Shown: piece after piece, positions 4,011-61,644 of the stretch
How the letters are laid out: each line of letters opens with the position of its first letter
How positions within the stretch are numbered: position 1 is the first letter of the stretch
Source of the DNA: Schmidtea nova
Taxonomy: Eukaryota
Assembly: GCA_044892505.1 (NCBI GenBank)
Contig: CM097882.1
Coordinates: 145,080,001 to 145,144,000 of the forward strand
Length of the DNA: 64,000 nt
Direction: 5' to 3'
The notes under the pieces: generated by a model
Told to the model about the DNA's origin: nothing
Database searches by the model: none
Seen by the model: the letters and a program-made list of their open reading frames with translations, nothing else
Position numbers and translations under genes: made by a program

Positions 4011-4181
4011 ATTTTCTTGTTTTATAATTATATCCAAATAAACTGTTGTTCCTATTGATTTGGTTTTATTATTTAGTTAAGTAGAGAGTGAAACTACCTT
4101 ATATTTATATTAATAAATTTAAAAAATTTTCTTTTTCTTCTCTCACTAACTAACCGAGATATTTATTTTTCGTTGAGCAGT

Positions 4182-4767
4182 ATGAACCGAGAGACAGAGC
4201 ACCAAGCTGAACGAGAGAAAGCTGTGAGAATTCGACTCAGCTTAGAAAAAGAGATTAAGCAAGTGAAAACCAAATTAGCTCAAGCAGAGGCACAAATCCA
4301 ATATTTACGCAAAGGCTGGTTTGCGCCAGCACGGATGAAAGAACAGTTGGCTCGTACGGAACGCGCTCAGCGAACAGCGGATGAATACCGGATTGAGTGG
4401 GAGGCCACCAAAATTGAACTGAGAAAATTCCTTCACTCGGTGACAACATCATTTATTGACTCCGAAATCAGAGCCCAAATCAGGCCCATCACGTATCAGC
4501 AGTGGGCGGGAGAAAAGAAACACGCTTGTTCAGTTGGAACTGACGTGGAGGGGTTGGAAGCCGTAACCATTTTGAGTCCGGCAGAATCAACAGAAATCGC
4601 CACAAATTCCAACGGTACCAAGAATATAAAGCGGATAAGCTCCAAGCGCCGAAGGCAGAAGAAACTGTTAGCTCAGCAGTCAGTTACAAGAGCAGATCGA
4701 ACGGATGGCCGACATGAGCGAGTTGGATCTATTAGCTGAGATTCTCCCACTCAACGGAGACTTCTAA
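4182..4767 (+). pseudogene. E1 ORF2 (coiled-coil, WFxP motif, Arg-rich tail), frameshifted near the C-terminus
   Basis: ATG at 4182 follows GAGCAG|T. Reads YLRKGWFAPARMKEQL, SVGTD and KRRRQKK. A frameshift near 4680 restores QLQEQIERMADMSELDLLAEILP. Confidence 0.8.
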
Positions 4768-4921: not shown

Positions 4922-5153
4922 GCGTAAGACCTTCTAACGGCAGCAGAAACCCATGAAAATAAATGGAGAGTAGTTCCAGCGATGGAGCTCACCTGCCCAT
5001 CTTTTTTCAATCACCTTGCGCATTTCCAACCTAACTATACAAGGAGTAATTAGGGGCGCTCGAGTGAGATAGTGTATGTTTATGCATGATTATGGATAGG
5101 GCATTCCTAGTATATTGACGAATTGTTTTCCAAACCCTTCCATAAACCCAGCA
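4922..5153 (+). ncRNA. 3' structured RNA module A with anti-SL segment (E1)
   Basis: GTAAGACCTTCTAACGGC at 4924-4941; GUUCCA-GCGA-UGGAGC hairpin; bulged stem containing AUUUCCAA; covaries with other copies. Confidence 0.7.
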
Positions 5154-5600: not shown

Positions 5601-6554
5601 GCTTTAAATTCTCTTTATTTTTTGTGTATTTATTTTTCGACGTATTAAAACAAAATTTCAACTTCACTTCTACCAGTCCAACAAAAGGTGCATGTTGGTG
5701 TGTATTTTTCTATACTGTAAGCTGATTGATTATTATAAACGAGACAATTGAGTGAAACATGGTGTATTATATATGTTGGGCCAGCCGAATGAAGTTGAAA
5801 CCTACAATTAAAAAAAATACTAAATAAAGAAATAGGAATATTTAATAACAATTATCCAACAGCAGCCAGGAATCTAGAACAAAATAACGGGAAAAATAAT
5901 CCATAAAATAAGTATCATGAGAAATAATCCATGAAATAAAACATAAATTACTTAAATGGTAACAGATGGGATCCATTACGGCCTGATCGAACCTAGAATT
6001 AAAATGAAAATCAATAGGATTATTATAAAATTATAATTAACAGTGCAGGAAATCCCAGGAATGGATTGAATTCTAAAAAAATAAAATAAGGTAAAAGCAA
6101 ACAGTTACCAACTAGGACCCTCTGTTGCACAGCAATCAAAGCTAGAAAATATTAAATAAATTACCGGGAAACTCACATTTGGAATAAATGAAATTAAAAT
6201 CAATGAAAAGTTCGGATTAAAAATTAATACCTGCAAATTACGACAGCGACAGGCGAGTTTTGATTGGTTGGAAGCCAACACAAAAATAGTATATTCAGTA
6301 TTGTACTGTCATTTTACCTTGAGACAATTTGTCAATTGGTGTACCGAATCATTAGAATCGGCGCGTCCAGCTCCGATTGATTTCTTTATTTTTCCGAAGC
6401 TTCTTTTCCTCATAGTTTATAGCTTCCAGCTGTTTTCTACCGACCGCAACAGCTCGACGACCAGCTACAAATCCACTGGGATCGGTTTTGAATAACAGTG
6501 GCTTATCCATCTCCTTATCGTAAGAAAATGGATCATTGAAGCTGATTGAGTGTA

Positions 6555-6905
6555 CTATTGATTAATTTCGGCAATACATCGACAAGTCATGTCACAGGAC
6601 ATTTCGTGATGAAATTTGCATTCACATCGAGCAGCTTCCAATTGTGCACGGCATACTTTCGATTCATCAACAAAAGAGATCTCGATTCCATTGATCAAAT
6701 TTGAATTAGGATTCTCTTCATAACAGGCAGCTTTATCTAGGCTCTTTATAAAGGGAACTCCCAAGAAACTGATAAAGTCAGCACTTTCCCATAAACTACA
6801 GTCCGAACCGCTATCCGAATATAGTTTGTTATCAAATTTCATTTCATCATTCATAATTGAATATAAACCAAATTTCGAAGTCACAATGACTTTATTTAAT
6901 TCCAA
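6555..6905 (-). CDS. Hypothetical 116-aa protein, antisense within E2
   Basis: Open frame with a Cys/His-rich C-terminus (CECKFHHEMSCDMTCRC); starts at a non-ATG codon; no recognisable family. Confidence 0.3.
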   Translation of the reverse strand: MELNKVIVTSKFGLYSIMNDEMKFDNKLYSDSGSDCSLWESADFISFLGVPFIKSLDKAACYEENPNSNLINGIEISFVDESKVCRAQLEAARCECKFHHEMSCDMTCRCIAEINQ

Positions 6906-7659
6906 ATGTTACAAAATTCGAATACGCAAAACATAAATCCCAAACTCGAAACCTCTTTTATCCCAATCAGTTGACGAAAACGAAGCTTAAAAGCAATTAA
7001 ATCAGCTAAACAAAATCAAATCCTAGAAAAATTCACAAATCCAATATATAAACCAAAAGTTCCTTTTAAATATTCCACAATTATTTATTTAAATTCCAAA
7101 TCCGCCAAAAATTACAAATTAATCCAGATAAACAACATCTCTAATTCCTTTTAAAAATACCCAATTACAAATTAAAAATTAATTCATTAAATTAAATCAA
7201 AATCTGCCACTAAAAGACATAACAATTAATACAGTAAAACAAATCAATTATTCGTTTTTTAATTAAACCCAAAATTCCAAAATCACCCAATGTTAATTCA
7301 CTTGGCAAACACTGTCCCTGATATCCTGATTTCTTTTCGCATCGAAAGCCGCACAACAAATTCGATTAATCCAGTCTTTAAGTTTTTTTTAATCCTCATC
7401 AAAATAAATCCAAATCGATTTAATTCCTTGGTTATTCCTATAAGCGAATTCCGCTCTCGCGTCTGTGTGCGCACCCAATTTCACGATAGATCACATCACT
7501 GTCGCGCGCACAGACGATTGCACGCAATTCCTTTTTTTGCTGCCATTTTTTTTTGAAGAATTAATTCTAAACAATTGTATTTTTTCAAAATCAGGAAACT
7601 TGAATTGCATGAGAATTCGGTGAAGAACGTAGAGATAGTCGATTTTATTTTTATATGTA

Positions 7660-7701
7660 CAAATAAGATTTATATAGATTTCGATAATACCGTCTAACGG
7701 C
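7660..7701 (-). ncRNA. Spliced-leader exon copy (42 nt; SL pseudogene or retrocopied leader)
   Basis: Minus strand reads GCCGTTAGACGGTATTATCGAAATCTATATAAATCTTATTTG, a 40/42 match to the S. mediterranea SL as recalled (GCCGTTAGACGGTCTTATCGAAATCTATATAAATCTTATATG). No clear Sm site follows. Confidence 0.85.
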
Positions 7702-7914
7702 TTCCAGGCTCGCCCTACAATCTCTCACAGCGATCAAGCACGCAATTAATTATTTTAATTATTATTTAATTAATTTTAAAAATATTTTAATAAGCGGGCG
7801 CGACCAGGTATCATTGCAATTTCTTTTTGTTAATTTTATGTTTTGTTGCGGTTAAACCCCCATATTTTTTCTATGCCTTGTTATATTGTTATGTTTAGGG
7901 AAATCAATAAGAGC

Positions 7915-8030
7915 ACGTTCCGACGGTCTCACGACCTGACGGGCAATAACTGGCCTCCAGGCGCAACACTCTCCGGAGTATTGGCCGGTGCGGCGTACCA
8001 ACGCTAAATGAAGGGGAGGAGAGAGGGTTA
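7915..8030 (+). other. GC-rich conserved motif C (putative structured 5' RNA)
   Basis: Homologous to 22165-22285 (CCGACGGTCT...GACGGG...TGGCCTC...TGCGGCGTACCARCGCTAAAT...GGAG). Confidence 0.55.
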
Positions 8031-9566
8031 CTAAATCATCATAAGCTTTGAATACGTGTCAAGCAAGCAGTGATATAAAATCGAACAAATTCAATACAAT
8101 TATCGTATGCATAGTAGGTTAAATTAACAACCCAGATATAATATACATCGATAAAACGGAGAACTTCGGAGAGGTTATACATAGGAACTGTAAAAAGTAA
8201 TCATTTTCGACACAAGCATCGAGCAAACATAGTGACAAAAGCAAAAAACGATACTTTTCGCATATTTGTTCGCATACACAATAAGATGATAAATAGCGTA
8301 ACACGATATTCATCATGAGGTTGGAGTTCTAGGGAATTGTAAGGTATGCAGGGAGAGGTAGAAAACTATGCTGACAAACCCACCCGAATGAATATCCGAA
8401 TTTAGAACCATAGATTAATGCACAAAGGCATAAGACAACACTACGATTTTTACGCTGCCAATGATGCCAACATAGATGCCCGCAAAAGGGGTGACAGAAA
8501 ATTTGCAGTTAGAAACCTAGAGAACCTCTTAATGTATGAGCGATTGAGTGCAGTGGATTAGAAAATTTCCGTCGATGATTGCTTGAAGGACTGAGGACTG
8601 AGGTTGACTGTTTGTGGCTTACAGATTCTTAAATTGCTAAGGCTGGTGGAGAGGTGATTGGTTGCAGATTGAGGTAGGTTTGGTGAATAATTTGTGTGTG
8701 GCATAAATTTTCCATTATGAGAGTTATTATGAACGATCGATAGAGTAATAATTCCAGAGCGAACCGGTAACAGCCGAGTGGATTCATAGTGAATATTTGT
8801 CCATTAAAATTATATGTGTTCAGTATTCATACCGAGTGATCAACAGAAGGGAGAATTGATTTTCTAGAGATTGTCAACAAAAATTGGAAAATAGACAACA
8901 GCTGGCGGTCAGCAATAAGGATTTAAATGGGTAGTCTAGAATGTTTGTTTTGTCTGCAAATATGGATTATGTGTTTGGCCAAATCTGGAGTCCAGTTTTA
9001 GTTGGCTGTTGAAATGAGGGTTGATGTGTTTGTGGGAATGCGTGTAAAAATAGAAGGGGTCAAGTTCTTTTTCCTATTTCTTCTAAAGATAATTTAAACC
9101 CATTATTTCTTTGTTCGTCAATTATAATTTGTAGTTAACATGGAAATTACATTGAACTCGAAAGCCGAAAATCTTCCGTCACATAAAGCCCTTTTCGATA
9201 ACAAGGGAAGGACTAATAAACCAGAGTCCTGGCCGTTAATCAACATCCCAAGGTCTATTCAAGCCGAAGTAAACCGGCATATACGCCACTGGCGACGTTA
9301 TTTTGGTCAACCCGCTCCTTTTGACCTATGGAAACATCCAAACTGTGAAATCCTATGTGAAGGAGGACCACACTGGCCATTTGATAAGAATACATTTGGT
9401 ACCAAACGCATCCGATGGTTTATCGAATTGCAAGATGACAATTGGGGTAAATTATCTTGGATCGACCCCGCAACATCCGCACAGGAGAGGTAATATCCTA
9501 CCCAAATCTGCCATTGGGGTTCCAAGGGGAATGGAAGTCACGATCGCCATGGGCAGGAAATATTCA

Positions 9567-9969: not shown

Positions 9970-10527
9970 TTAATTTAACAACACTGATGGGTTTATGACC
10001 GCGATCAATTGTTTCTCAGTGAGACCACTCAGAAGGTCTAATTCAATTCCGACTCTTTCAGCGTATTCCCTTCGCTCTCGTCTTCGTTTTGCTCCTAATC
10101 GGTTCCGACGTTTTGTCCGTTTGGAGCCCTCAAGTGGCGACATGGTTATTGGAGTACTCGCCATGGAACTCGAGTCCATATCTGTTTGTGTACTCATGGA
10201 TACGTTAGTAGTCTTCACCCAGCGATTGAAAGTGCTGGCTCGGATGAGGGATCGTAACTGCTGCGTGATAAATTCTTTGGTGGACACCCTCATATAATTA
10301 TTTAGCTCCAGCTTTACAGCGGCAGCCTCTCGTGTTTGCTCGTCAGCTATCTGCTCGGCTCTGTATCTCGCTTGTTGAATCAGTTTCACCCGTTCCGGAT
10401 GAAACCATGTGGTTTTCACTCTTTAGTGTTCCTCACTCAACTGTTGTAGCCTACCTTCGAGAACTTTAATTCGTAATTTGTGCTCCTTAGCCTCTCTCTT
10501 ATAGTTACGATTGTGGCTTTCATTCAT
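9970..10527 (-). pseudogene. E3 ORF2 (coiled-coil, WFxP, TQT, Arg-rich) with one in-frame stop
   Basis: TTTTTAG|ATG at 10527; MNESHNRNYKREAKEHKLRIKVLEGRLQQLSEEH*RVKTTWFHPERVK...STQTD...NRLGAKRRRERR. Confidence 0.8.
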
Positions 10528-10822: not shown

Positions 10823-11362
10823 TCAGTTGGCTCGTCCTCTCCCATCCGGTTGGTAGATTTCTGGGCACGGGTCCCAACATAACCGATCCTGGTATGCAAA
10901 GACTTCCCATAGTCTTTCGTTGTTTGGCCCCGACTGAGTGTTCATATTTATATTTCCGGGTGCATGGAAGTAGGATTGTCTTTTGTAAACATTGTCCGTG
11001 TAAACACATCGGGGTTGGTCCATTAGGATGTATCCGAGTTTGTGGAAGTCGGACCTTGTCATAGAATTGTCGCTCAATATCCACTTGGGTTGGCTTTGGG
11101 AGTTCTCAAGCTGTAGAAACCATCGGCTGCCGGCTCGATTCGGCGTCTTTGATGACATTGGCCACTCCGGATCGCCTTCCCATCGCACCCTTAGCTGGAA
11201 AGACCCTATCGTTCCTCGGGTGGCTGGGTCGACGTGGCCTCGCATCCAGGCTCTCAGGTGTCGCTCGGCCGACCACTTTATAGCACTGGGGATGAGTGTT
11301 GGATCTTCGAAACGCCATCTTCGGATAGCGCGACTTCGCTGTCGTTCTCTTTGGTATTTCAT
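10823..11362 (-). CDS. E3 ORF1, 179-aa Trp-rich protein of unknown function
   Basis: Intact ORF preceded by TTTTTAG|AGG-ATG; WEGDPEWP core aligns with GGPxWP of other copies. Confidence 0.7.
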   Translation of the reverse strand: MKYQRERQRSRAIRRWRFEDPTLIPSAIKWSAERHLRAWMRGHVDPATRGTIGSFQLRVRWEGDPEWPMSSKTPNRAGSRWFLQLENSQSQPKWILSDNSMTRSDFHKLGYILMDQPRCVYTDNVYKRQSYFHAPGNINMNTQSGPNNERLWEVFAYQDRLCWDPCPEIYQPDGRGRAN

Positions 11363-12352
11363 CCTCTAAAAAGATAGAGGCATTAGTTGAAGGATGAGGC
11401 CTTTCACACATCATTCCATCGTATGTCCACTGTTTCGTACACTCTGTCATCATGCTTCGTTCATGTCACATTATACTCTTTCACCCAAATCATACAAATT
11501 ATTTAAGATGTTTACCTGGTGCATTGATTTCATATTTGCTATAACTTTTCCGGTCAACATTTTGATCGTATGATCGCATTCAGTAGTATTTAATCATACC
11601 TACCCTACGCATTCATACTACTTTGTGTTTGCATAGTAATGTACTGGCTACTACTACTCAGATTTGATGTCACATTTATCATCAGTCACGCACGTTTCAC
11701 CGCAATCGATTAAATTCACATTCACATTCAACCAACATAAATCAATTTGTACCTCGTTATTACTCGGAAGGTATTATAGTCGGTTAGCTTCATACACGAC
11801 AATTTGTATTGTGGGGGGGGTTTAACTCTGGGTAGCTGATAGTGGGAACTCAACTCCCTAGATACTGCGCCAATCGAATCAAGTCTTTAGTGTTCTCATT
11901 TCACTTTCGTATTTATTATGTTGTTACTTGTCGCTTACAATGATCGAGTCTGACCTTAACTCTGGTCGCCTCGCATTTTTGGACCATCTGATTTTATCTC
12001 TCCTTCTAACCGCTACTCGAACAAGTCATGTGCACCCTTCCCCTTCCGAATTAATTAAAACACTTATGGTCTCGCCGCATCAGCACCTCACATGAAAATG
12101 TGTTGTGCCGAGAGGCCGAGAATCCCGTCAGATCGTTAGACCTTCGGGACAAACTTATAGATTTTAACATGAGGGTTTAATTAACATTCATAACAAGAAT
12201 ACAACTAACGTACCTTTTATTCGCAAATGTCTTCACGGTTAGAATGTTGTTCCAATTTAGACCACAAGTGATTCTAGTAAAATGACTCAACTCCAAAATG
12301 ACTGACTAAAATATTGACTGCAAAAATGACTGACTTTCTACTGATTTCACTG

Positions 12353-15082: not shown

Positions 15083-16273
<1,191 letters not shown>

Positions 16274-17306: not shown

Positions 17307-17527
17307 TGGTGTGGACACCGTTTCTTTTTTTGAGGATGATCTAGGTGGTGGATGCGACCCACACTTCAACATAAATTTACCTCTATCCCACTCGTACACC
17401 CATGGTAATTCCCCGGATAACCATGTTGGAACTGTGTACGACAGTGAAAGACTAGTGGATAGGTGAGCCCATTACAATGACTACTCTTTCTTCATCGGGT
17501 TCTAGAGGCCGTTAGAAGGTCTTACGC
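17307..17527 (-). ncRNA. 3' structured RNA module A (E5)
   Basis: Plus strand 17508-17525 GCCGTTAGAAGGTCTTAC; UCGUACAC/GUGUACGA outer stem; CAUGGU/ACCAUG inner stem. Confidence 0.7.
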
Positions 17528-19678: not shown

Positions 19679-20248
19679 CGGATTGACCGTCTCTACCGTA
19701 GGTCTCATTATTTATTTTATTTGCCTAATTAATTTTTTAGTTTTCAGATTCAATTCTCTTTAGGAGGTCCAGTTTTCCAATCAATTTTCCAATTACAAGT
19801 ACTTTTATTTTATTTAAATTATTAATATTCTACAATTTATTTGTTTTAGGTGCCTCTTATGACGGCTAATTTTACAATTTCTCTTGACCATTCTTTAAAA
19901 TTTTATCTCAAACTTATCTATAATTTATTTATTTATAATTTTTTTATAATTTTTTTTTTTTTTATAATTTCATTTATAGTTTCTACGTTTTTTTCTTTTT
20001 GTTTTAATTGTTATAAATTTAGTTTCCTTTTTACTCTGTTTAACTGGCCCAACATTTGTCTACATGTAATTATTCCAATATGAGCTTTATTCGAATATTT
20101 TATTAGTTAAAAAATCTTTCTATTTTCCGATTTGTTATGAAATACTCAAGTTAACTCAACTCAGAACAAAACAATTATTTCATATTAAATTTCGTGATTT
20201 CCTTCACTGAGTCAGATGACACCCACTAAAAACTCCAATTCAGTTAGC

Positions 20249-20560
20249 TCATCCAAACCTTCGACCTGGGCCTTGAATTGCTGAGCGAACAGCTTCTATT
20301 GTCGTCGCCTCTGCGCCAATGCGTTTGCGCTTGTTGGATCCCGACAGATTCACTGCTATCTGCTCTGAATTGTCTTGACCAAGGAGCACGGTTTTGGTGA
20401 GGCCACTCATGTCCGTTCCCACCGAACAAAACTTTTTCAGTTGATTGGTCCCTTTTTGTAATGTAATTGGGCGGATGCATGGCTCAACTCTGTCTCCTCG
20501 AAAGATCGGGTGACCTAGTTGAGACATTTGCACAGCTCTATCCGAGTAGCTTTAAGTTCC
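20249..20560 (-). pseudogene. E5 ORF2 fragment
   Basis: IRPITLQ...FCSVGTDMS...KRKRIG, matching E1 and E7 ORF2. Confidence 0.7.
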
Positions 20561-22164
20561 TATGCCATCTCTCACACCCTCTCTTTACTATCTCCGCATC
20601 ACAACATTACCCTTGGCTCTATATTAACCATGCTACCCTTCCTATTGGCCAAAACTGCCTTAAATAACTTTTACCCATAATGACCCTTAGTATGTAAATT
20701 AATCAGAAGAAATCAAGTACTTAAGTCGCAGGCAACAATACCTCGTGGTAATTCCTTCGTTAAAAAATTGAACGGTATTATTCATCAATCAACCGATTTT
20801 ATATTTCTATCGCTTTGGACCAATTCCAAACACCCCGTTGGTATTTCCCTTTCCAAATATTTTCATTAAACCTGGAGCCTTCCGGCTCCATATCTTATAA
20901 TACATCACGCTGTCGGTTTCGTCGAAAATGTTTCCTAAATTTCTCACTAGAACCCCCTATGCGCAACCCTCCTTCAGATACCATCGAAAAATCATTTTTG
21001 TTATAGATTTTAATAACAAATTTGCAATTTAACTTCTCTAAAACATAGTCACCAGTTCGTGGAGCTAAGAAGCCCCACGCAGATGGATCGCACCCTTGCA
21101 GCGTGAGCTACAGAGGACACTATACTAAAACATAAATATGAAAAATAAAAACGCTAATTATCCACTTAACTTATATATTTATGTGCAAATAAAAATATCA
21201 TGAAAGCACCAAAATTAAAATTAGACAAATGTCGGGCTGGCGAAATCGGAAAATAAATTTTGTTTAAATTTATCAAAAATTAAATATATACAAGAGGGAA
21301 CAAGTTTAAAAACGCACGATAAAGTATTACACAGTAAAACAACGCAAAAGAAAATAAAAATAGTATAGTACAATAGTAGACACACGAACCGCATTCCATA
21401 AGTCGGGCGAGATAGGGTTGAAACGATAGAAAAGATGCATCTCGAAAGAGAACCCATAATTTGAGAGCAGGTCACATTTACACATGAAGAACCGCACGAA
21501 AATTGAATGGGGAAGATTATCACTGTATAAAATAACGAAAAGCATGATCAAAGAATAAAATTGAAATCAGGATAAAGAAAATAATTTATTAAAAATTATA
21601 GGAAAAATCCCCATTGAAAAATCGGAAAATAACAGAGATAGAAAAAAATAGAATTAAATTAAATTGATTGTTTTAATCAATCAATTAATGTACAAAAACA
21701 GTGGACACACACACCATTTAACGAAATTAAAAACAAATATTTTAGAAATAAAAAAATCAAATCATAAAATTAAAATTACAAAAAAAATAAATAATCATTT
21801 ATTAAAACTAATAAATTAAGTTTAATCGTTAAAATAATTATTTACATAATATCATTCGTGGGTGCAAGTTGATTTGATATAAATAGACGCTGAGAGTCAC
21901 AGTTAGTTGGTAGTTAGCATAAAATTTTCAGTATTTCATTTTTGCCAGCCAGTCGCGTGAGTGAGTAGGTTTGTTTTGTTATATTTTTAATGATAATTGG
22001 TAATGCATATTGAATTTAGCTACGATAATAGTTTTATTGTTAGCTTGTTGAATAAGAAGTGTTATAAATTACAATGGTATCTAATAAATATTTAGAATTG
22101 AAATTTTATGTTTTGGCTATTTGCGAGTAAACCCTCATAATAACCGGAGTAAAATTCATAAAGG

Positions 22165-22285
22165 CGATTCCCGACGGTCTAACAACACGACGGGTGCTAA
22201 GTGGCCTCTCGTCCTGACTTCTTCCGGGGACTTAAGCAATGCGGCGTACCAGCGCTAAATTTGGGCAGGAGAAAAGAGGATTGCA
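22165..22285 (+). other. Conserved motif C (E6)
   Basis: Homologous to 7915-8030. Confidence 0.55.
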
Positions 22286-22455
22286 AAGAGTATTCATAGT
22301 TTTGGTGAATTATTTTTGGATGAGAAAAGTAGATAAAAACATTTTTTGAATTGGTATATAATGTTTTTGAGGATGAATAAAGCTAGAGATTTAAAAGCAG
22401 GTGGTAATAGATAGTTAAGAGGTAATCATGCGATAGGACCGAAAAGTAAGCAGAT

Positions 22456-22695
22456 GCGTAAGTCTTTCTATCGGCAGCAAGAACCCGAAAGAGAGAATTT
22501 AGTGAGGAGTAGTTTCGGCAACGGAGCTCACCTGCTCACTCGATTCTCACCACCGTGTACAGTACCAACATAGTTACTTGAGGAATAACTATGGGTACAC
22601 GTGTGTGGTAGATTGATATTTATGTTGCGTTATGGGTTGTATTAACCCCTAAAAATCGTTAATAGTTTTTAAAACAACACCCATATCACTCAACA
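22456..22695 (+). ncRNA. 3' structured RNA module A (E6)
   Basis: GTAAGTCTTTCTATCGGC; GUUUCG-GCAA-CGGAGC; CGUGUAC/GUACACG; CAUAGUUA/UAACUAUG. Confidence 0.72.
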
Positions 22696-24737
22696 CAAAT
22701 ACAAAATTTACCTAGAAGTTCCTTGAGAGTATTCTGTAAATTAGAAGTAGTGTAACGCATGTAAAATCGGCTGAACTAATTCGAAGATTTTGCAAGTCTA
22801 ACNNNNNNNNNNNNNNNNNNNNNNNNNNNNNNNNNNNNNNNNNNNNNNNNNNNNNNNNNNNNNNNNNNNNNNNNNNNNNNNNNNNNNNNNNNNNNNNNNN
22901 NNNNNNNNNNNNNNNNNNNNNNNNNNNNNNNNNNNNNNNNNNNNNNNNNNNNNNNNNNNNNTTTGATCGCTGAGACATTGTACTGTAGAAGAGAGACAAT
23001 AGACTTCTGCCGGATTTAATATTAAATCCAAAAAAGTAAATTTTCATGTTTTTTTGGATAACAACTTTGACATTCTTTCCTCATTAGTATAGTAAGTAGA
23101 ACGAATTAGAATTTCTAAAGTTTTACTTGGAAAAGTAAATACAATTGTCTACCTTTACCAATAATTTAAAGTTTATATATCCGGACATACAATCACACAT
23201 TCATTTTTATATTAGATCTAACAACTCCGATTTTGATTATGTCTAATTACTCTGTATGTTACACATTATTTGAATTTTTACATTTACAATTGCGATAGAT
23301 GCTATAGGTCAACCAACAGAGTATTTTAAGGAACATTGGTGTACGAAGGTTTGTAAATTGAGACGAATAAGTACATGACTTTTTGGAGAAAAGGTTCACA
23401 TTATTTTAACTTTCAGTGGCGAAGAACTTAATGATGACGAATATTTATATGATTGCGGATTTGTGCGAAAGGAAACTGGTGAAGATAGATTTATGAGTTA
23501 AGACCAAGTACAAAATTGTATAAACTGGGTAGAAGTCAGAAAACAATAAGACTTAGAAAGAGCAATGAGTATTTTAGGTATAATTGTGTAGAGGAAACTG
23601 AAAATGAAATTCATTTAGAAAGTATGGCGAATATGAGTAAAAATAATAATGTTGAATATGTAACTAAAATAGACAAGGAGGAAGAAGTGGGTACAATTAA
23701 TAGGGAATATAGTGAGCCAGCTGGTGAAGAAAATGATTTGAGTGGTATAGAAAAAGGAGTGGAAATTAAAAATGATTAAAACAGTAGAAAATATATAATT
23801 GGTGAAAGAAAAAAAGTCTGAAAATGAAGTAGTAAATAAAATTTATATTAATTTGTGTGAGTTAGAAAACTTGTTGGAGGAAAATAAAATGAAACATGAA
23901 GCATTTGTAGTGAAAACAGAAGTAATTAATAGACAAGATGAAAAAGAATATATAAATGAACCTAGAGATGAAAGACCAGTTATAGAAAAGGCAAAAAAAT
24001 AAAGAGAAGAGGATTTAGGTTTCGGTCGTTTTTAATGCTCATACTAAGTTGTGGGTACTCGGTTCTATTGATTATTATCATTTTTCTTTCAATGGGTCAT
24101 GAATCTGCACTGCTTTTGATATTCTTATTTGGTAGACTCGAAGATATCGATGCTAATGAGGTTCTGTTTCAATTTAATAGGGTTATTCTTTAGATTGGTC
24201 TTTGATTTTACGATTCACTTTCATATTTAATTATGGGTGTCTTTTTTGATTATGGATCTTCTTTTTGATTGACTTGATACAGTTTAATTTAGTATTTATT
24301 TTTCTAATTTTTTTCTGGGTCGATTTGTTCGTCTTCTATTCTTACTGTTCTGATTTTCTTTTTGATTTGGGTTGATTGTTTGATTTCTTTATGAATTGTT
24401 AAGCATGATGATTTCTTGATCTGTTTTTTTTTAATATTGTCAATTGCATTTTCGTACCATAAAAAGTCCTCACTCGTATAGAAAATTGATTTTACTCTTA
24501 CATGGAGAGAATCGTGAACGGAAACAAGAACTTCCCAAAGTTTCATCGCTGTATTTTTTCCCCTTCTAGCTCTTTTTGGTGCCATTATTTTATTTTTATT
24601 TTGCTTTTAATTAATTTTTAATTTCTAGAGTTATAATATTTATTTGTAAATGATGATATATAAAAAATTTCATCTCTATACAATTTATGATAATCAAAAC
24701 TATATTGATTTATAAAAAAATAATTATAAAGTACAAT

Positions 24738-27700
24738 CAGCGCCGTCTCTTCCATTGTGCTAACTGTGCTAAGCACAGGGGGCGCCGTGAGTGAAGGGGC
24801 GCCGTAAATTTTATAAAAGCCATAAATTTGATAAAATTTGCACTTTCAAATATAATTTATGATATTACAAAAAAAATTATGAATAATTTAAAAAATTTCC
24901 CAAGAGAGGCCACTGGTTGAAAATAATCAAACAAATAGTGTCGTAGTCGCAGTGGTTTGTAATATGTAATTGTGAATTGTGGTCGTGAAATATCAAAACC
25001 ACATAGTAAGCTTTTTTTTATAACATTTTCAATTTTGTATACCGGAACAAAAATTTTATTTTTCCTAGGAAAAACATAAACAAACATATTGCATATATGA
25101 TATATCCATAGATAATATTTAATTAAAAATTAAATTGGCGAAAAAAAATTATTTTCTTTGGACATTATTTAATAAAAAGTATAGTATATCAGTTAAGAAA
25201 TAATTTTTTATGTGAGTGATGAAAAAAAATATATGTATAAAGTGAATGGTATCAATTATCAATTTGGATTATGCGTTAAATTGAATCAATTGATCGATTG
25301 AAATGTAATAATATTAAATGAAAAGGATGATGGAGAAAAATTGAAAAATTATAAACAAAACAAAATTAAAGAAAATCGAAAAAAATTAGTTTAATATATA
25401 AATTAAAATTTTAAATATATGCAAAAATAATTATTATTTTTTGACATTTTTGTTTATAAGTTTTAAAACTTTAAAAAATTGAGAAGAAAATTTTGTAATA
25501 ATCTAGTTATCTACATTTACGAATTAATTTTGAAATAAAAGGTGAAAAGAATATATTTTTTTATTACAATTTATAACTTTACATTTTTTTAAAGGTACCC
25601 TTGTAAAATAAAAATGGAAAAGAAAAAATTATCCGGATGTGCTAGACGAAAACTAAATGCAACAAAAAGATTAAAGGACAAATCTATATTGGAAAAAACG
25701 CCAACATTAAAAACTTTTTTTAAAGTCACTGATAATGTAAATAATTCAATTGCACCAATTGAAAATGAGCCGCAACAAATGCTGGAAAATCAAAACATAA
25801 GTGTAATAACAGCTGTTGATGAAGAATCGATAGATAATGAAAACAATTCTGGAGCAGCAAACGTTATCTCAGTAGGATGTAGTGAGCAAGTAAATTACGA
25901 AGACCCCGCAAATTGGGGTGATATAAATTCCAAAAAAAGAAACAAAATAATTAATAATTTAAAGGATGTAGATGTAAGCAAATTAGATTTTTCTAGCTCG
26001 AAAATAATTTATAAAAATCAAAACCGGTTTGCAAGTAAAAATTTATTTTATAGGAAATTAGTAAACGGTGAATTTAAAAAAAGAAACTGGGTTAGGTTTT
26101 CTAAATCTACAGGAAAATCTTTTTGTGCTTTTTGAAAACTATTTGGAACTATTACAAATAGTTTCACTTTAGGTTTTAATGATTGGAGTCATCCAAATTT
26201 ATTGTCGGACTATGAGAATTCAGTTAATCATAAAGATAATACACTGATTTTTGTAAATAATTTAAATGATACATCCAGTATTAGGCAAAGTTTTAAAGCT
26301 GAAGAAATTAAAAATATTAGATATTGGAAAAATATTTTGACAAGAATAGTTGAAGTAATATTATTTCTAAGTTCCAGGGGAATTCCATTTAGGGGTAAAA
26401 ATCAGATATTAAGAAATAAATTAAATGGCAATTATTTAGGTTCTATAGAACTTTTAGCTAAATTTGACCTATTGCTTCAACAGCATCTAAGAGAGTATGG
26501 AAATAGAGGAAAGGGATATGTGTCCTATTTATCAGCAAATATTTGCGATGAATTCATAGAAATCTTGGGATGTTATGTGAGAAGCAAAATAATCACAGAA
26601 TTGAAAGAAGCAAAATATTTTTCCATTATAGTAGATTCTACGCCTGATATTTCACATGTAGACCAATTAACGATAATTATTAGATATGTGAAAAGAGATG
26701 GAATTCCGGTAGAAAGATTTTTGTGCTTCTTAGATAACACTGGTCATAAGAGCTTCGAAATGGAGAAATCAGTTATTAAAACATTGTCTAACTTCGGTAT
26801 AAATTTACAAGATTGTCGCCGGCAATCTTATGACAATGCTGCTAATATGCCGGGAGTCTATAATGGTCTGCAAGCTCGTATTAGAGCCAAAAATGAATTT
26901 GCAATTTATGTTCCATGTGCTGCACATTCGTTAAATGTAATTGGTGAAAGCTCAGCAGAATGTTGTCAAGAAGCGACTAAACTATTTATGCTTGTACAAA
27001 ATTTGTACACTTTTTTTCGGTGTCCACGTCTAGGTGGTAATTATTAAAAAAGGAGATAGGACCAAAAGGCCTTGTTCCAAAAAGAATATGTGATACTCGG
27101 TGGTCTGCTAGAGCAGATGCAGTTAAAGCACTTAAATTAGGATATGAGTCTTTTAAAAAGGCACTACAAAACTTTATTAATGATATAACGAAAAAACCAG
27201 TTGAAAAAATAGAAGCCCAGGGACTATTAAAACAATTAAATTTTCTTGAAACCGGTATAATGCTATCATTTTGGATCGATATATTAAATGCAATTAATGG
27301 GGCAAGTAAAACACTTCAAAAAGTTGAAATAAACATTGAAGTAGGTGTTAAAATATATAATAGTTTATATGTATTTCTGCAGAGCAAACGAGAGTTAGAG
27401 TCTTTCAATTTTTATAAAAAAGAAGGAATTTTAATAACTGGGTGCCAAAATTTTAAAACAACTAGGCAACATAAAAGAAAAAAACAATTCGACGAAAGTA
27501 GTACACCAGATCATTTTTTTTAGTGATACGAATTTTCGTATAAATTCATATTATGTAGTTCTTGATAAACTTCTCCTAGAAATAAATAAAAGAAAATGTA
27601 GTTATGATGAAATATATTTAAAATTCGGATTTATTTTCGATTTAAAAAATTTAGATGATACTGAAATCAGGGAGAAAGCCTCTAAATTATGTGAAATATA

Positions 27701-28426
27701 CACGAACGATCTAGATAAAAGTTTAATTGAAGAATGCCTATATTTTAAAAATTTTACTGTCCATAACAAAACTGGTACTGAAAATTCACAATCAGAAATT
27801 CTTTTAAAAACAATAATTGAGTCTGATATCGGATCCACTTTTCCAAACATAGAAATTACGTTAAGAATATTTATGAGTATAGGATTAACTAACTGTTCAG
27901 GTGAAAGATCTTTTTCGCTTCTAAAAAGATTAAAAAATCATCTTCGTTCTTCCTTGCGACAAGAAAAATTTAATAATTTAAGTATATTAGCCATTGAGTC
28001 TGAATTTTTTGAAAGTATTGACTGTGAAGAAATGGTTGATAGTTTTGCAAGACATAAATCTAGAAAGAAAAAAATATTGTAATCGTTTTTCTTCATTATA
28101 CATATTAATTCTATTTAATGTTATATTTTGATATTTATGTTTGAAAGAAATTAATTTTTTTTCTTAATTTTTTTGTTTAAAGAAAACATTAGACTGTTGA
28201 ATTTTTATAAGCTAATGTTAATTTAATATTATTTTTTTATTGTTTTTTTTGTTCGTTTGTTAACCTAGTCATTGAAATAAAATGATGTAATATATAATAT
28301 TAATATATGTATATGCAATAATGTGTAATATTATTAATAAACATAATATATTTTTGTAAAAATTGATTTTTAGGGGCGCATTATAGTTTATAGCACAGGG
28401 GCGACAAATTTCTAAAGGCGCCTCTG
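24738..28426 (+). mobile_element. hAT DNA transposon (defective)
   Basis: Exact 8-bp TSD AGTACAAT (24730-24737/28427-28434); imperfect CAG- TIRs with subterminal AGCACAGGGGCG repeats. Confidence 0.9.
25614..28082 (+). pseudogene. hAT transposase (ZMYM1-like), frameshifted
   Basis: YFSIIVDSTPDISHVDQL, SYDNAANM, CAAHSLN, CDTRWSAR and hATC motif NCSGERSFSLLKRLKN across broken frames. Confidence 0.92.
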
Positions 28427-28850
28427 AGTACAATTATAATGAAGCCATCTATCGATGTACTAAAAAATAAATAGGGTTCTTCATCTAAGGTGTATCTACC
28501 GTACAGCAAAATTTCAGCACAATAGTACGAGTATAAATTGAGTTATGTTAGAAAATGTATAAAAAAATTTATAAAAATTCCGACTTTATCTCACTTCTGC
28601 TCACTTAAAGAACTGAAGCCATTGCCCGATCGACCTCACAAACAATAGGATTCTTTGTTAAAGATGTATCTAACAAATAACGAAAGTTTCAAGACGATAG
28701 CTCTACCCGCTCCCGAGTCTAGAGCGGACATACATACATTGCCTGAAAAATCTTTCCTATTTTATAAACATAGATTATAAGCCAAAAATAATTTTTCAGA
28801 TTAAACTTAATGTATGAAAATTTCAAATTTCAAAATTTTATTATCGTATA

Positions 28851-30167
28851 TACAGGATAAACCAATAAGTTTTGTCCGGTGCTCATACTCAGCTTTCCAA
28901 TGCTGTAATAAGTGTATAGGTCTGCAACTTTGTGTGTCTATGCTATATATGTTGTAGATTTATAAAATTAAAAAAAAATCACTTATTAATAATTTTTAAC
29001 ATTGCTATTAACTTTGATATGTCTTAGATGGATTAAGCACTTTTAATAAACTTCTTGTTTGACTGAAATATTTTTTGTTTTCATTAGAATACGTCGATTT
29101 GAAATGAATTTCGCACGAGAAGATATCCGCAAGTTAATCTACTACAATTGGAAACGTGGATTAGTGCCTTCCCAGATTGCAAATGAAATAAATTTGACAC
29201 TGGAGAAGGACACAACAAATGAGCGCACTTGTCGACGCTGGTTTGCAAACTTCAAGGAAGGAAACTTTGATGTTGAAGACAAAGAGCGATGTGGGAGGCC
29301 TGAGCACCGATGAGCGTGGAGCTTGGAGTTTGTCAGCAGACAATTCGAAATCATCTGCTTGCAATGAGCATGCGTTACCTGTGCAACCACTGGGTCCCAC
29401 ACAAGTTGTCCGAGCAACAAATGGCCAACAGTGATAAAATATGCAACAAGCTGCTGTGCAAGTATGCTGCTAATGACTTCCTCAGTCAGCTCATTACAAT
29501 GGACAAAGGCTGGATCTATTGGAACAACGACGGAACCTATCACCACCGTTCGTGGAGAAGCGCAGGTGATGCCCCTGATGTGGAAGTTCGCCGCGCACTC
29601 TCACCCAGGAAACATCTCATGCCCGTCTTTTGGGACTGTAAAGGTGTAATTATGATGGATATTCTGCCGCAGGGTGCTACAATCACTGCCAATGTTTACT
29701 ACGAACAGCTGTCCCGTCTGGTGACGGCAATACAACAAAAGCGACGCTGTCTTCATGGTGGTGGGTTTCATCAAATTCCCTATCTCCACGACAATGCACG
29801 ACCCCATACGGCAGCCAAATCTGTGCAAAAACTTACTGACATTAGTTTTACTGTTCTGCCACATCCTCTTTACTCCCCAGACCTGGCACCGTCCGATTTG
29901 TATTTGTTTTCCCCTTTAAAATGTGCAATTCGTGGAAAAGATTTCAACGGAGTTGATGAAATTCAAGTGGTTCTGGACGCTTGGTTGGACAGTAAACCAC
30001 GCAGCTTCTTCGCTGATGGAATCAGGAAACTGCCTGATCGATGGCGTCGATGTGTCCTTCATAATAGTGCATATTTTGAACATCTCTCTGACACAGATGA
30101 TCGACATTTTTGATGTTTTGAAATTTATACATGTTTCACCGGATTAAACTTATTGGTTTATCCAGTA
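28851..30167 (+). mobile_element. mariner (DD34D) transposon
   Basis: ~31-bp TIRs TAC(A/T)GGATAAACCAATAAGTTT..TCCGGTG with TA TSDs. Confidence 0.95.
29104..30113 (+). pseudogene. mariner transposase, frameshifted near 29310
   Basis: HTH region, then ITMDKGW, YLHDNARPH, YSPDLAPSDLYLF. Confidence 0.93.
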
Positions 30168-31366
30168 TATTTCACAGATTTTTAAAATTTAATTTTTAAA
30201 TAAATTTATTCTCGAAAACTAAAAAATCCCATAATTGACCATTATTTTATAAAGCTTTAAAAATTAATCTTACATGTATATTATTTTATAAAATAATCGT
30301 CCAAAAATCAAGAAATAACTCATAAATTCATATTTGCAAATTAACACATCCATTTCGATCATTAACATCATCCATAACTACCACTGCACTTAGAAATTCC
30401 TATGAAAATCCTATTCGCCTACATTTGTAACTAAGTACATCGTTTCACTCATTTACAACCCTTGCATATAAAAATAAATTCACTCACTGACACCCATCAA
30501 TCAATTATACTACTGGAAAAACTGCAAATTAGACCTAACCAAATCCTACAAGTCACGACAGTTTAAAACATAAATCAAATTGCTTGTATTCCACAACACT
30601 CGTGTTTGCAATTCAAGATATCGCACCAATCGACAACATCATCTATATATAGTACAGCACGTGGAAAATTTAATAACAAATCTATTCATCTATAGTTGCA
30701 AATTAGTATACCTTTTCACTCATTAACATCATCTCTATCTAACAATACACACGAAAATTTATTCATTCATAAATGCATTCATATAATACCGTTTCGCTCA
30801 TTAACATTTCATACCCAGCATGTTATATCCAGAAAATCTATACAAAAATCCATTCCAACGTATTCATCATTAAACCATCCATTTCATTCAATAATGTCAC
30901 TTACTGTCATCCATCACTCAAAAAACTTACTACTTAATCTATTAAAATATGTTTAGTTAACTTACAGTTCACAACATCCGATAACATAAATCCTTGCAAT
31001 TCACACCATCATATATCGTTGATCAATTCACTTACAACTTACAATATCCTTTAACATAAATCAAGCCACATTGCATCCCACAACATCCATTTTGGCAACT
31101 CAGTACATTATATCCATCAATAATATCCACAACACTTATCATCTTAGTTGCAACTAATAACACCCTATAGGCTACCTTATCATACTGCTGAAAAGTGAAT
31201 ACTCAAATTATCAAACTCTATAGGATTTCATATACTAGGAAATTGTTTTCATTAAAATTTTCATTCAATCAATAAAAGCCATTGCGGTCAAATATTCAAT
31301 AAAAATTTGTAAGAATAGAAAAATCTTAATATGTTCAGCCTAAAAAATCCATAAAAATTTATTTAT

Positions 31367-34300
31367 TGTTATGAAGTACTGAATACTAGAAACTAGTTAA
31401 ATTCAAATATTTATTAAACATAAAACTTTAGTTATTAAAACAACTTTAAATTAAAGATTGATTTAATATATATATAACATCTCCTTCTCAAATCCAGTCC
31501 CCAAATCGGCCTGGTGGTTTTCTGTTCCTGTCGGGTCTGCCCTTGGTATCAACGTCCAATGTGTCTACTATCGGACTTTTATTCCGTGAGCTTCTATCTT
31601 CTGCAATTTGATTGTTGCTTGTTAAAGTCAGGTTTGTTTCTCCCGGTTTTATAATCCATGAGGTGCTGTTTCCCTTTGGCATTAAGAATATGGCTTCTTG
31701 GGATTCTTTTTCCGATGTTTGTTTGTATGTTATCTTTTCTCCTTGTTTGAAATTTGAGGAGATCGGCACCCTTATTTGTCGTCCGAATATTATTTCCGAC
31801 GGCGATTTGCCTCTTGAGTCTGTGGCTACTCTATGGTGGAATAGTACCTTTTGTAAGTACGATGTGAAGGGCTGGTGAGTTTGCGTTAGTTTCCAACTCC
31901 GTATGGCCTTCTTAATCACCTGGACAGATCTCTCTGCACTTCCATTCGTCATTGGGAAGTATGGAGGGCTTTCAATCTTCTGAATGCCTTGACGTGAATT
32001 CGGGGGCATTATCAGACACTAATGTCTCGGGAACACCAAAGCGACAAAATACTGTTCGCAAACATTCTATGATTGTCTCAGATGAGCGATTCCGTGTTCT
32101 AAATGCTTCTATCCATCCAGAGCCTGAATCAACAATAATTAGAATGTTTCCTACTTCAGCAGCATGAGCCCAATCTATATGTATTCTTTCGAATGGTTTT
32201 GCTATAGGCCACTGATCGACTGTTTTTACAATTGACGAGCGAAGTCGGTTGCAAACTGAACATTCACTGACTCTCTTTTCAATGTCACCGTGCATACCAG
32301 GCCACCATGCGGAAATGGATATTCTTTTAGTAGATGACTTGGTGCCAGAGTGCATTTCGTCGTGCGCTAATTCAAACACTTCTCGCCTGAGTCTTGTAGG
32401 GATAAAAATTCGTGTCCCATAGTATAGCATATTGTCTTCGATAGTCAACCTTTCTGATGCTCTTGCAAATGGCTTCTCGGCTTCGGAGCACGACGACCAT
32501 TTTCCATTTGTCACTCGTTTCATGATTCTTTGCATGAATTTGTCTTTGCTCAGTTCTTCTCTGATTTTGTCCTCATCTAAAATACATTTTCTGAATTGGG
32601 CGGTCATTGAATGTAAGATGGTCTCTGCTATTACTTCTTCTTCATCTTTAATGTCTTTTTTTACATATTTTAATCGGGACAGGGCATCGACATGTGGGAT
32701 ATCTTTCCCTCTTAGGTATGAAATTGAATAATCATACTGCATCAATAATAATGCCCATTTCATCACTCTTACTGATGTAGTACTGGGAATAGCACTCTTG
32801 TTGCCAAACAGATATTGCAGTGGTTTGTGATCGGTTTTGATGTCAAATTTTCTTCCCAAGAGGAACTGCTTCAGACGAATCACTGACCATACAATCGCTA
32901 ATGCTTCGCGCTCTATGTTGGAATAGTTCCTTTTTGTCGGTGATAATGTCCTCGATACATATATTACTGGCGAGCCCTCTTGTGTAAGTATGGCAGCTAT
33001 AGCGGTTTTGGATGCATCTGTAGTTAATGTTACTTCTTTTTCTAGGTCATACGGTTTAACTATTGGTGACTTCGATATCTTCTTTTTTAATTCCTCAAAC
33101 GCCGACTGGCATGCCTTGGTCCATTGGAAGGCACCACACTTTGATTTCCTTAACTCGTTTATCGGACGTATTTTCATTGCAAATTGTGGAATTAATCTGC
33201 CGAAATAATTGATTAATCCGACAAAGCTTTCCACTTCTTTTCTGTTTCCCGGTGTCTGTATCTCACGTATTTTTGATACAAGTCTATCATCTGGTTCGAT
33301 TCATTTTACGGATATTTTGAAGCCTAAAAACGTAATCACTTTTGAATGTAGGATAGACTTACTTTCATTCATTGTGACTTTTTTTTCTTTTAGCCTTGAT
33401 ATGACCACATTCAATCTTTTTCTCAGCGCTTCATTGTTTTCTGCAAAGATTAAGATGTCGTCTTGGTAAATTAACAATCTTTTAATGTCTGCTAGGATGT
33501 TTTCCATTGTTCTCTGGAAGATTGTTGATGCGTTCTTCATTTCCATCTGCAGTCTGTTTACTTCGTACAGGCCTTTGCTCGTGTTTATGACCGATAATTT
33601 CTTTGCTTGTTCGTCTAGCTCGATTTGCCAGTAAGCTGAAGTTAAATCTAACTGTGCAAAGACCTTGGCATTCTTTAATTTGGCGAAGATGGTCTCAATA
33701 TTCGGGAGAGGGTAGGCATCCATTTTGATTCTCTCATTTACATGCACCTTGAAGTCTACACACATTCTTAACTCCCATTTCTCTTCTTTATCCAAATCAC
33801 CGGCGAGGCATTCGTAACCGGGGTTGTGCATGGACTGATTATTCCTATCTTCTCTAATCGGGTTAGTTCATCGTTCACCTTGCTTTCTAATGCTAAGGGT
33901 ATCGGGCGTGCTCGACAAAATACGTCTTTCGAGTTCTCGATTAGTGTCATTGACGCTTTTATTCCCTTTATCGACCTGAGAATTTCGGATGGGTGTTTTT
34001 CATTTGAGATTTGATTTATTGATAATTCCATTTCATTTAAGATCAAAAGAATGTCCTGGCCCAACAGGCCAAATTCTTTTGTAGATTTTACTAATATTAA
34101 CTCGATCGGATATATCTTTGATTTCGTTTCGATGGTAGTATTGAACTTACCGGTTGATTTCAGTACATGACCGTCATATGCTTCTAGAGTCTTCGTTGTT
34201 TTCTTTAGTTTGGGTTTGCTTAAGTACTCCCATATGGATGTTGATATTATTGATACTGTGGCTCCTGTATCCAATTGCATTTTTACCGGTACTGACTTGA

Positions 34301-35285
34301 TTGTGTAAGTCTCTATATTATCCCCAACTTGATTTACAGTCTCGACATGATATATGCCACACTCCTCCTCGTTATCAGATATATAATTCATTACCTTAGT
34401 TTCTTTTGAAAGCTGGGTCGATCGGCACACTTTTGCCAGATGGTTTCTTTTCCCACATAGTTTGCATTCTTTATTGAATGCTGGACATTGTCTTTTCTTG
34501 TGATTCGATCCGCAAAATTTGCAGATTGTAACAGTTTCATGGGTTGACTTTTGCTTTGAAAAGTTTATCTCGAATTCTTTATCTCCTACATTTTCTGTGA
34601 TGTTTTCTTCGCCTTTGATGAATAATTGTATTTGTTCTATGTTCTGAATAATGTTCTGGATCTCGTGAACTGATTTGCAATTGTCCTGGCATTGTATGAG
34701 AACCTTCTCTTGTGTTGCTTTGTCCCGAATTCCTGTCAATACTGCTATTTTTAACATCTCCTCTGTAGGGTCGATTACATTCTTTAACTGCTCAAATTCA
34801 CAGAATCGTGCCCTTGTCTTTAGTCTTGTGACAAAATCGGCTATTGATTCGTAGGCTATTTGCTTTGTCATATAAAACTTTGTTCTCTCCGCAATAACCA
34901 GTCTTCTTTTTGGTACAAGATACTGCAACAGGGCTTTGTGAATTTTCTCGAATTCCATTTCTTCAATCTTCTCGGGTTCCACAATTGTCTGAGTTTTCAT
35001 TAAGGCTTTTATTCCGCAACTGGCCATGAAATATTTTGTCGAAATTCTGCCACTGTCTTCTGATGTTGACAGGTTGCATCTCGATATAGCTGAAAATGCT
35101 AGGAGCAAGCATTTGGCTTCTTCTGCGCATTGCAGGTTTAATTCTCCTAACCTGTGCTGTGACGCCATTGTTATGAAGTACTGAATACTAGAAACTAGTT
35201 AAATTCAAATATTTATTAAACATAAAATTTTAGTTATTAAAACAACTTTAAATTAAAGATTGATTTAATATATATATATATAACA
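31367..35285 (-). mobile_element. Full-length Ty3/gypsy LTR retrotransposon (3.9 kb) with ~115-bp LTRs
   Basis: LTRs at 31367-31479 and 35169-35285 (TG...CA); 5-bp TSD TTTAT; PBS TGGCGTCACAG; PPT TGAGAAGGAGA. Confidence 0.95.
31488..35168 (-). pseudogene. gag-pol (zinc knuckle, PR, RT, RNase H, integrase) with frameshifts
   Basis: CKFCGSNHKKRQC; LDTGATVS; YQDDILI; TDASK...EREALA...TDHKPL; HIDWA...LVSDNAPEF; NGSAERSVQ. Confidence 0.93.
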
Positions 35286-45357: not shown

Positions 45358-45593
45358 GCGTAAGTCCTTCTAACGGCAGCAATGAACCCGTAAACATAAA
45401 TGGGGAGTAGTACTAGCGATAGTGCTCACCTGCCCATCATTGTTTAACCACCCTGCGCATCACCAACTTGATTATATAGGGAAATAGTCGAGGGCGCTTG
45501 AGTGTATAATTGCAATTTTATGTATGATCATGGATGAGGGATCCCTAGTCATTGTTAGAACATTTTTCATCTAACCCCTCCATGAACCCAGCA
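45358..45593 (+). ncRNA. 3' structured RNA module A (E7)
   Basis: GTAAGTCCTTCTAACGGC; GUACUA-GCGA-UAGUGC; CUUGAUUA/UAGUCGAG. Confidence 0.72.
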
Positions 45594-50627: not shown

Positions 50628-51061
50628 GACACAATAATCACACCCCTTTACAAAAAACGCTATAGCGAATGCCTCAAATAAAAATATACAAGCAAAACAC
50701 AGGCACAACATAGTAATTTGTACAGATTTTTATTTCTTTTGAAGATAGGTAATTTATGGTGTTAAATTGTAATCAAACAAACAAAACATAACAAAAAAAA
50801 CAAAACAAAACAAAAAAAAAGGTTTTATGTTAGTGTTATTATAAAAAAATGTAAACTTGGTGTGATTCCGTGAATGTTGTTTTCCTGTTTTTCGTCCAAA
50901 TGTTAACCTCCGGTTTTAAAGGGGGAAGTTGTGTTGTGTATATGAAAGTTGGAAATTTTTATTTATTATTTGTATTTATTATTTGTATTGAGTATGGTAC
51001 TGTGCATACCGGAACCCCCCCCCCCTTTACATTATTTAGGCGCTTTATGTTTGGGGTTATG

Positions 51062-51099
<38 letters not shown>

Positions 51100-61640: not shown

Positions 61641-61644
61641 AGAA

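Follow-up and report, generated by a model that had tools for sequence, protein, structure and literature searches.

A spliced leader exon copy in Schmidtea nova as a probable fixed part of the long terminal repeats of a BEL/Pao family carrying host mRNA 5' pieces

Introduction

The window analyzed here, a 64,000-nt stretch of the Schmidtea nova genome, contains a copy of the 42-nt spliced leader (SL) exon lying antisense within a repetitive element, E2. How did a leader exon come to lie there, and to what does it belong? The first-pass annotation of this DNA, made from the sequence alone, had proposed that E2 captured either a retrocopied SL-capped transcript or a fragment of an SL RNA gene, possibly reused as a TATA box, or that the copy was the ancestral source of the short anti-SL segments found in the E2 family. 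We addressed these questions by comparing the locus with the true SL RNA genes of the same genome, with sister copies of E2, and with other genomic loci containing the SL.

Results

The SL copy and the true SL RNA genes

The SL reference was drawn from the genome itself, namely from three true SL RNA genes in locus L074, each of which has the exon, a GT donor, a U-rich Sm-like site and stem-loops. The minus strand at 7660-7701 agrees with this exon at 40 of 42 positions, with differences at positions 14 and 40, and none of 100 shuffles produced a match. The SL match reported earlier is therefore confirmed, as are the presence of CTATATAAAT within it and, ~215 nt to its right, that of a conserved family motif (~7916) that we take to be the motif C of the first-pass annotation.

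A genome search for the SL tail followed by GT yielded 39 matches, all of which were viewed: three are the true SL genes and 36 are LTR-linked, none of the latter having an SL intron or an Sm site. Given only three exact SL+GT true genes, SL RNA gene arrays may be collapsed or variant in the assembly. The copy in the window has no GT donor, no Sm site and no SL fold (z +0.4 for the SL with its downstream DNA vs z -3.9 for a true SL gene), and an Rfam scan of the window gave no matches. The sequence downstream of it is a host exon, and the DNA upstream is unlike that upstream of the true SL genes. Thus, the copy is not a fragment of an SL gene, nor is the locus the ordinary SL RNA gene repeat that had been weighed as the alternative to the E2-based readings, since the downstream comparison with the true genes turns up neither donor, Sm site nor fold.

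An LTR inserted into E2

The element flanking the SL copy was equated with E2 by position. In six of its seven sister copies, the sequence corresponding to 5800-6360 is joined directly to that from 7806 onwards without any insert, and the SL is present in none of the seven (the best alignment has at least 18 mismatches of 42). Together with the ends of the insert, which are those of another family, this comparison places the SL copy in a separate LTR inserted into E2 and not in E2 itself (Table 1). The view that it forms part of E2 was hence not borne out. Reuse as a TATA box found no support, as the CCAAT/TATA-like region of E2 persists and has been displaced by the insert; the same is true of the ancestral-source reading, because the insert occurs in this copy only, while the anti-SL segments recur in other copies of the family. 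The proposed retrocopied SL-capped transcript survives in part: the SL is indeed followed by host mRNA pieces, but these came inside the LTR of another element and were not captured by E2. At its 3' end, the LTR in the window is without the terminal CCA and without one copy of the target site, and comparison with another copy (L160) suggests a small deletion there.

Table 1. Features of the SL-bearing insert, its flanks and the reference SL RNA genes (positions within the window unless a locus is named)
Feature	Position	Strand	Basis or remark
Left flank, host element E2 with CCAAT/TATA-like region at ~6262-6298	5800..6357	+	joined to 7807+ in 6/7 sister copies
Solo-type LTR of BEL/Pao family, SL-headed and cargo-bearing	6358..7806	-	1.45 kb; ends common to 30 loci; full-length relatives; sister E2 copies without it
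Conserved last ~40 nt of LTR	6358..6400	-	directly before primer binding site in full-length copies
Cargo 2, decayed piece of proteasome alpha-subunit mRNA	6389..6663	-	Pfam Proteasome, E 3e-5; 85% to longer piece in L111
Further coding-like cargo piece, common to other copies	6664..6900	-	locus comparison
Hypervariable T/G-rich spacer, bounds approximate	6901..7446	-	in relatives holds splice acceptor used by SL
Family hairpin, often after cargo 1	7447..7516	-	arm motif in 14/30 loci; z -2.2 for 7440-7530
Cargo 1, exon piece of host gene	7550..7648	-	parent alignment (L139, 89%); no Pfam match
11-nt piece between SL and cargo 1	7649..7659	-	no match to parent gene (parent comparison)
SL exon copy, putative start of R	7660..7701	-	sequence match, 40/42; R role inferred
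Fixed 105-nt LTR head, U3 by position	7702..7806	-	starts TG; follows polypurine tract in 3' LTRs
Right flank, host element E2 with motif C at ~7916	7807..8180	+	sequence comparison
Probable surviving copy of 5-bp target site	7807..7811	+	inferred from sister copy L160
True SL RNA genes	L074:3914, 4950, 7542		clustered; sole exact SL+GT true genes in assembly

The family to which E2 belongs (the E family) has an SL link of its own, separate from that of the LTR. Segments matching 15-16 of the first 17 nt of the SL lie at 4925-4941, 17508-17524 and 45361-45377, with none expected by chance, and motif C (~7916-7950) looks partly complementary to them. The common orientation previously claimed for such segments and the SL copy holds for the first and third, whereas the second lies on the opposite strand. 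E-family ORFs (4092-4739, 9128-9493, 9970-10422 and 10823-11365) encode products of coiled-coil type with a basic tail or of Trp-rich type and have no Pfam match, and a large inverted pair of E-family-like copies occupies 60536-62531. Elsewhere in the window, an actin coding sequence (15083-16087, minus strand) was recognized by eye from its translation, and two decayed gypsy-like LTR elements (31365-35278 and 45595-51656) as well as hAT- and mariner-like transposase remnants were noted by eye.

A BEL/Pao family with an SL in its LTRs

When the genome was searched with 7300-8000, nearly all matches stopped at ~7806 and many began at 7660. In 30 loci, a fixed head of ~105 nt precedes the SL; downstream of the SL, 21 of them share the sequence of the window and the other nine each differ. 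The LTR unit is bounded by TG..CA, and some copies are preceded by a polypurine tract. One region contains a full element with twin LTRs of 1933 bp (99.95% identical), and among 12 further regions, ten have clean twin LTRs (1014-2566 bp, 99.7-100%) and a primer binding site (PBS), while one is a tandem duplication without a PBS; the twin-LTR regions were chosen for two nearby SL matches. Within each of the eleven full-length copies, the same cargo is present in both twin LTRs (1.0-2.6 kb, 99.7-100%). In full-length copies, a PBS, presumably matching initiator tRNA-Met, follows the 5' LTR and a polypurine tract precedes the 3' LTR, and the PBS with its flank has 340 exact matches in the genome.

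In one copy, Pfam detects DUF1759, a zinc knuckle, a protease, RVT_1, Peptidase_A17, an integrase zinc finger and DUF5641 in BEL/Pao order over three frames, a set that homologs have as well; in the same single-copy Pfam analysis, older ubiquitin and HSP90 pieces precede Gag, internal to the element. The internal region is without pol in 10 of the 11 full-length copies, for which a helper element is assumed. An exact 5-bp target-site duplication flanks 12 of 17 solo LTRs, six of these 12 lying outside microsatellites. Based on the twin LTRs, PBS, polypurine tract, domains and 5-bp duplications, the family is a BEL/Pao LTR retrotransposon, and it has been active recently. DIRS/Ngaro, Helitron, Penelope and short-TIR DNA elements were dropped as candidates in view of the same structural features.

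The solo LTR in the window has the order U3, SL, cargo, hairpin/spacer, cargo and conserved end (then the PBS in full-length copies), which is seen across the family; the bounds of U3, R and U5 were set by position only. A "300-nt 3' cassette" shared by several copies was rejected as a fixed LTR end, being old proteasome cargo. The T/G-rich spacer of the window and its relatives (~41% T, 10% C) resembles a patchwork of short common motifs in scrambled order.

The last 28 nt of the SL have 866 exact matches in the genome, compared with none for the control. Among the first 30 SL-tail matches along contig 1, 29 have the U3 head in front (28 near whole and one partial). One further SL site has the full head before the SL (92% over 105 nt), and another is a solo LTR of 1253 bp in which the head, the SL and a target duplication are all present. 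At one locus (L129), the SL tail lacks a U3 head, and some LTRs have a partial SL. In DNA contigs from one study, which may be the source of the assembly, the summed depth is 20,000-33,000 on U3+SL vs ~20 on the flanks, and mixed, low-agreement loose ends directly follow the SL. Many SL-LTR insertions lie in (TAA/ATT)n microsatellites, some of several kb (L140, L144-L149 and many flanks among L001-L138), a possible target preference. Tandem arrays of the element with a period of ~5 kb were also observed (L185-L188, and G000 C1 139.08-139.11 Mb).

Host mRNA cargo behind the SL

Grouped by cargo start, the 109 distinct SL sites across all loci examined form 42 clusters, including that of the true SL gene. 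Of 41 cargo ORFs scanned, 18 match host Pfam families, many of them at the start of the profile, including IMD, PXA, proteasome A, SIKE, UFL1, Per1, SMC_N, CNH and symplekin. Parent tracing was tried for five SL-adjacent cargos (RRM, SIKE, UFL1, the window family and MIM). For the four parents traced, the join is at an AG acceptor in three and introns have been removed in three. The RRM cargo (L023) comprises six exons of L098/L099 with five introns gone, one of them ~20 kb, and starts exactly after the AG of its parent. An ATG-ending exon lies just upstream in this RRM gene (L098:3254), so that, with splicing at the acceptor of the second exon, the SL can supply an in-frame ATG in its stead. 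The SIKE cargo (L060) has three exons of L206 with two introns gone and starts at an AG with one substitution, and the UFL1 cargo (L111) is an intronless part of L165 starting at an AG within 1 nt. In the window family, cargo 1 of L018 joins two L139 exons with a 2.5-kb intron removed; the window's own cargo 1 does not begin at the parent acceptor, as 11 foreign nt are followed by a match starting 46 nt into the L139 exon.

No parent was found for the MIM cargo (L028) among nine matches, or for the FKBP cargo among 40 scored of 773 candidates. A Nuf2-like identity for the window's cargo 1 has no Pfam support, and L096 and L108 were rejected as parent genes because both are further LTR copies. 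The FKBP-type cargo is much amplified (L148:6920-7719, L141, L147; at least 40 copies), and together with the internal HSP90 piece it presumably recalls chaperones of the piRNA pathway.

The LTRs are serial mosaics: the copy in the window combines pieces from L139 and a proteasome mRNA with a third, unplaced one, and L108 has a second head end and a partial SL inside its LTR. Apparent microhomology at 3' cargo junctions, in A-rich stretches, was noted by eye in a few cases, the 5' side being the SL itself. The LINE-type processed pseudogene pattern of a poly(A) tail, 3' anchoring and target duplications of variable length was not seen, as the cargos are anchored at their 5' ends and end in LTR sequence.

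Cargo reading into gag

In 23 of 30 PBS loci, the gag frame is open for at least 100 codons upstream into the cargo, whereas another frame is open in one and six are short; the chance expectation for an in-frame junction is one third. As the PBS sample includes tandem duplicates, the 23 loci correspond to about eight cargo types, among which Pfam identifies FHA, FKBP, ThiF and proteasome; others we take to be SMYD5-, UTP20- and Boule-like. Some copies retain an ATG just before the PBS, so a host ATG is not strictly required.

The closest Pol relatives are ~52% identical. Two relatives from other assemblies have host-like sequence in front of the primer-site peptide: a DnaJA1-like piece in frame before the same peptide in P0001 (E 7e-5), and a weak Ulp1-like piece in P0006 (E 0.004, with no PDB support). 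These host-like N-termini suggest that the capture system may be older than this genome.

Discussion

A possible role of the SL in strand transfer

Taken together, we consider it quite probable that the SL is a fixed LTR part of a recently active BEL/Pao family that carries spliced host 5' pieces, and that it is a likely landing site of first-strand transfer. Two further sets of observations bear on this reading. The SL of L148 is fused to a stretch whose counterpart in L174 (96% over 130 nt) comes after an AG terminating the T/G-rich spacer; of eight such non-SL matches, four follow an AG and the other four are tandem copies with changed context. The L148 joint fits trans-splicing of the element's own RNA, with the product presumably copied back into both LTRs. 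In addition, variants in the 5' part of the SL that are foreign to the three true SL genes are common to several cargos: one occurs on 12 sites in three clusters, that of the window on nine sites in two cargo clusters, and one cargo is present with both wild-type and variant SL. The SL variants have thus been shuffled against the cargo, which puts the point of shuffling inside the SL or at its end.

We propose the following cycle. The RNA of the element would be SL trans-spliced and lose its own 5' end. In the standard cycle, according to PMC6894440, first strand transfer needs homology in R; with the 5' end replaced by the SL, only copies having an SL after U3 would keep this homology. Minus-strand synthesis, primed by tRNA, could then switch onto a co-packaged SL-capped mRNA and run to its leader, and the resulting cDNA would find its landing site in the SL copy that an element RNA carries at its 3' end. 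With an SL at the start of R, cDNA switched onto any SL-capped host mRNA would remain competent for transfer. Second-strand transfer would write the cargo into both LTRs, and captures beside the primer site would persist mainly in frame, because a host ATG would then start Gag. Finally, recombination between LTRs would give rise to solo LTRs such as the copy in the window.

A wider version of this model would make the SL an obligatory strand-transfer signal and have the Gag start codon outsourced to host mRNAs, with the trans-spliced stem-cell/germline transcriptome sampled into hundreds of LTRs host domains fused in frame, and host-gene sequence perhaps fed into piRNA silencing. As a whole, we lean only slightly towards it.

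Other explanations were considered. The SL may have been picked up once and kept as a passive homology block, the cargo being acquired by ordinary internal template switches or by recombination at the DNA level, without a role in an obligatory transfer. Internal switches by microsimilarity are indeed known, as reported in PMC5131818; the SL nonetheless keeps a constant position behind U3 in 29 of 30 matches, and the SL joined to the element's own acceptor is found in both LTRs of L148, for which transfer at the SL is needed. We therefore regard a passive SL as unlikely. Slightly less probable still in our judgment is capture by the spliceosome, in which a U3+SL element RNA would act as an extended SL donor that is trans-spliced onto host pre-mRNAs, reverse transcription merely fixing the chimera. 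Such capture predicts joins exactly at host acceptors and would keep element-specific SL variants on new cargo, but an SL intron or Sm site is absent from all 36 LTR-linked SL+GT matches, and the 3' junction back into the LTR, the partial-SL junctions and the short serial pieces would be left unexplained.

Capture by E2 itself of an SL gene fragment or retrocopy, reused as a TATA box or as a source of anti-SL guides, could draw on the ~215-nt distance of the match from motif C, its TATA-like word and the SL-like 17-mers recurring in the E family; it is largely refuted, and very improbable, in the face of flanks joined in six of seven sister copies, none with the SL, a TATA-like region persisting to the left of the insert, and the ends of another family. 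Also refuted, despite the 40/42 identity to the SL exon, are an SL RNA gene of the ordinary type, a pseudogene of one and an artefact of assembly: donor, Sm site and fold are lacking, the flanks are unlike those of true genes, and the target-site duplications fit genuine, dispersed copies, as does the contig depth.

Should strand transfer at the SL prove correct, it would answer how an LTR element can replicate even though its host removes the 5' ends of mRNAs and puts a leader in their place, with the side effect that dozens to hundreds of genes are captured by one family, including in-frame domain fusions. The LTRs would then document the identity of mRNAs that underwent trans-splicing in cells contributing DNA to the next generation, together with the splice positions. 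For work on planarians, the practical consequence is that SL-plus-exon copies, numbering in the hundreds, can interfere with counting SL genes, annotating genes, mapping reads and designing RNAi.

Comparison with known systems

The closest likeness is to LTR-mediated retroposition in animals, in which partial, spliced and sometimes multi-gene retrocopies are joined to LTR-element sequence (Tan et al. 2016, PMC5131818). According to that report, they are made by template switching and keep moving as non-autonomous elements, one case involving the Pao element BATUMI. The cargo described there (15 cases in fly) replaces part of the internal region via two chance microsimilarities, whereas the SL-LTR family has it within both LTRs, with the mRNA 5' end anchored through a homology of 42 nt that is universal, and with at least 42 distinct starts in this one family.

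In parasitic flatworms, 597 leader loci near LTR/LINE elements were discarded from an SL survey, with integration of trans-spliced retrotransposon RNA as the suggested origin (Calvelo et al. 2025, PMC12582326). Their leaders are partial, and, as far as that source goes, no LTR position, host cargo or role in strand transfer is described. Some of these loci may be of the same kind as the SL-LTRs, and the model would offer a testable mechanism for such leader-bearing mobile loci and, by analogy, for SL-tagged retrogenes elsewhere. The relic-SL retrogenes of dinoflagellates likewise derive from trans-spliced mRNAs copied into DNA and bear an SL in the genome as their tag, but, as far as PMC12014239 goes, they are free and not built into an LTR, and the mobilizing element is not identified.

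With BEL/Pao elements, the family shares the domain set, PBS, polypurine tract, TG..CA ends and 5-bp target duplication (PMC3118150). Families of this group, in the Flow superfamily, were reported there from a planarian; SL-headed, cargo-swapping LTRs or host-derived Gag N-termini are not among the features described, as far as that source goes. Cer1 of C. elegans is also an LTR element with SL trans-spliced RNA, but, by the account in PMC3315495, SL1 is found on a short spliced RNA only and the 8-kb RNA avoids SL1, whereas in the SL-LTR family the leader is within the LTR. Cis-splicing of a solo LTR to an acceptor of trans-splicing has been described as well (PMC4558846).

The main text of a comparative planarian genome paper has no mention of "leader", "trans-splic" or "Pao" (PMC11410931). 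In the full-text literature, a body that leaves most subscription papers, Repbase and supplements outside, we came across no account in which an SL is built into an LTR at a fixed place and the 5' ends of mRNAs are captured on a mass scale. As far as these sources extend, the literature thus holds only partial precedents: LTR-mediated gene capture is a kind already known, and what is unusual in the present family is the proposed SL-based mechanism.
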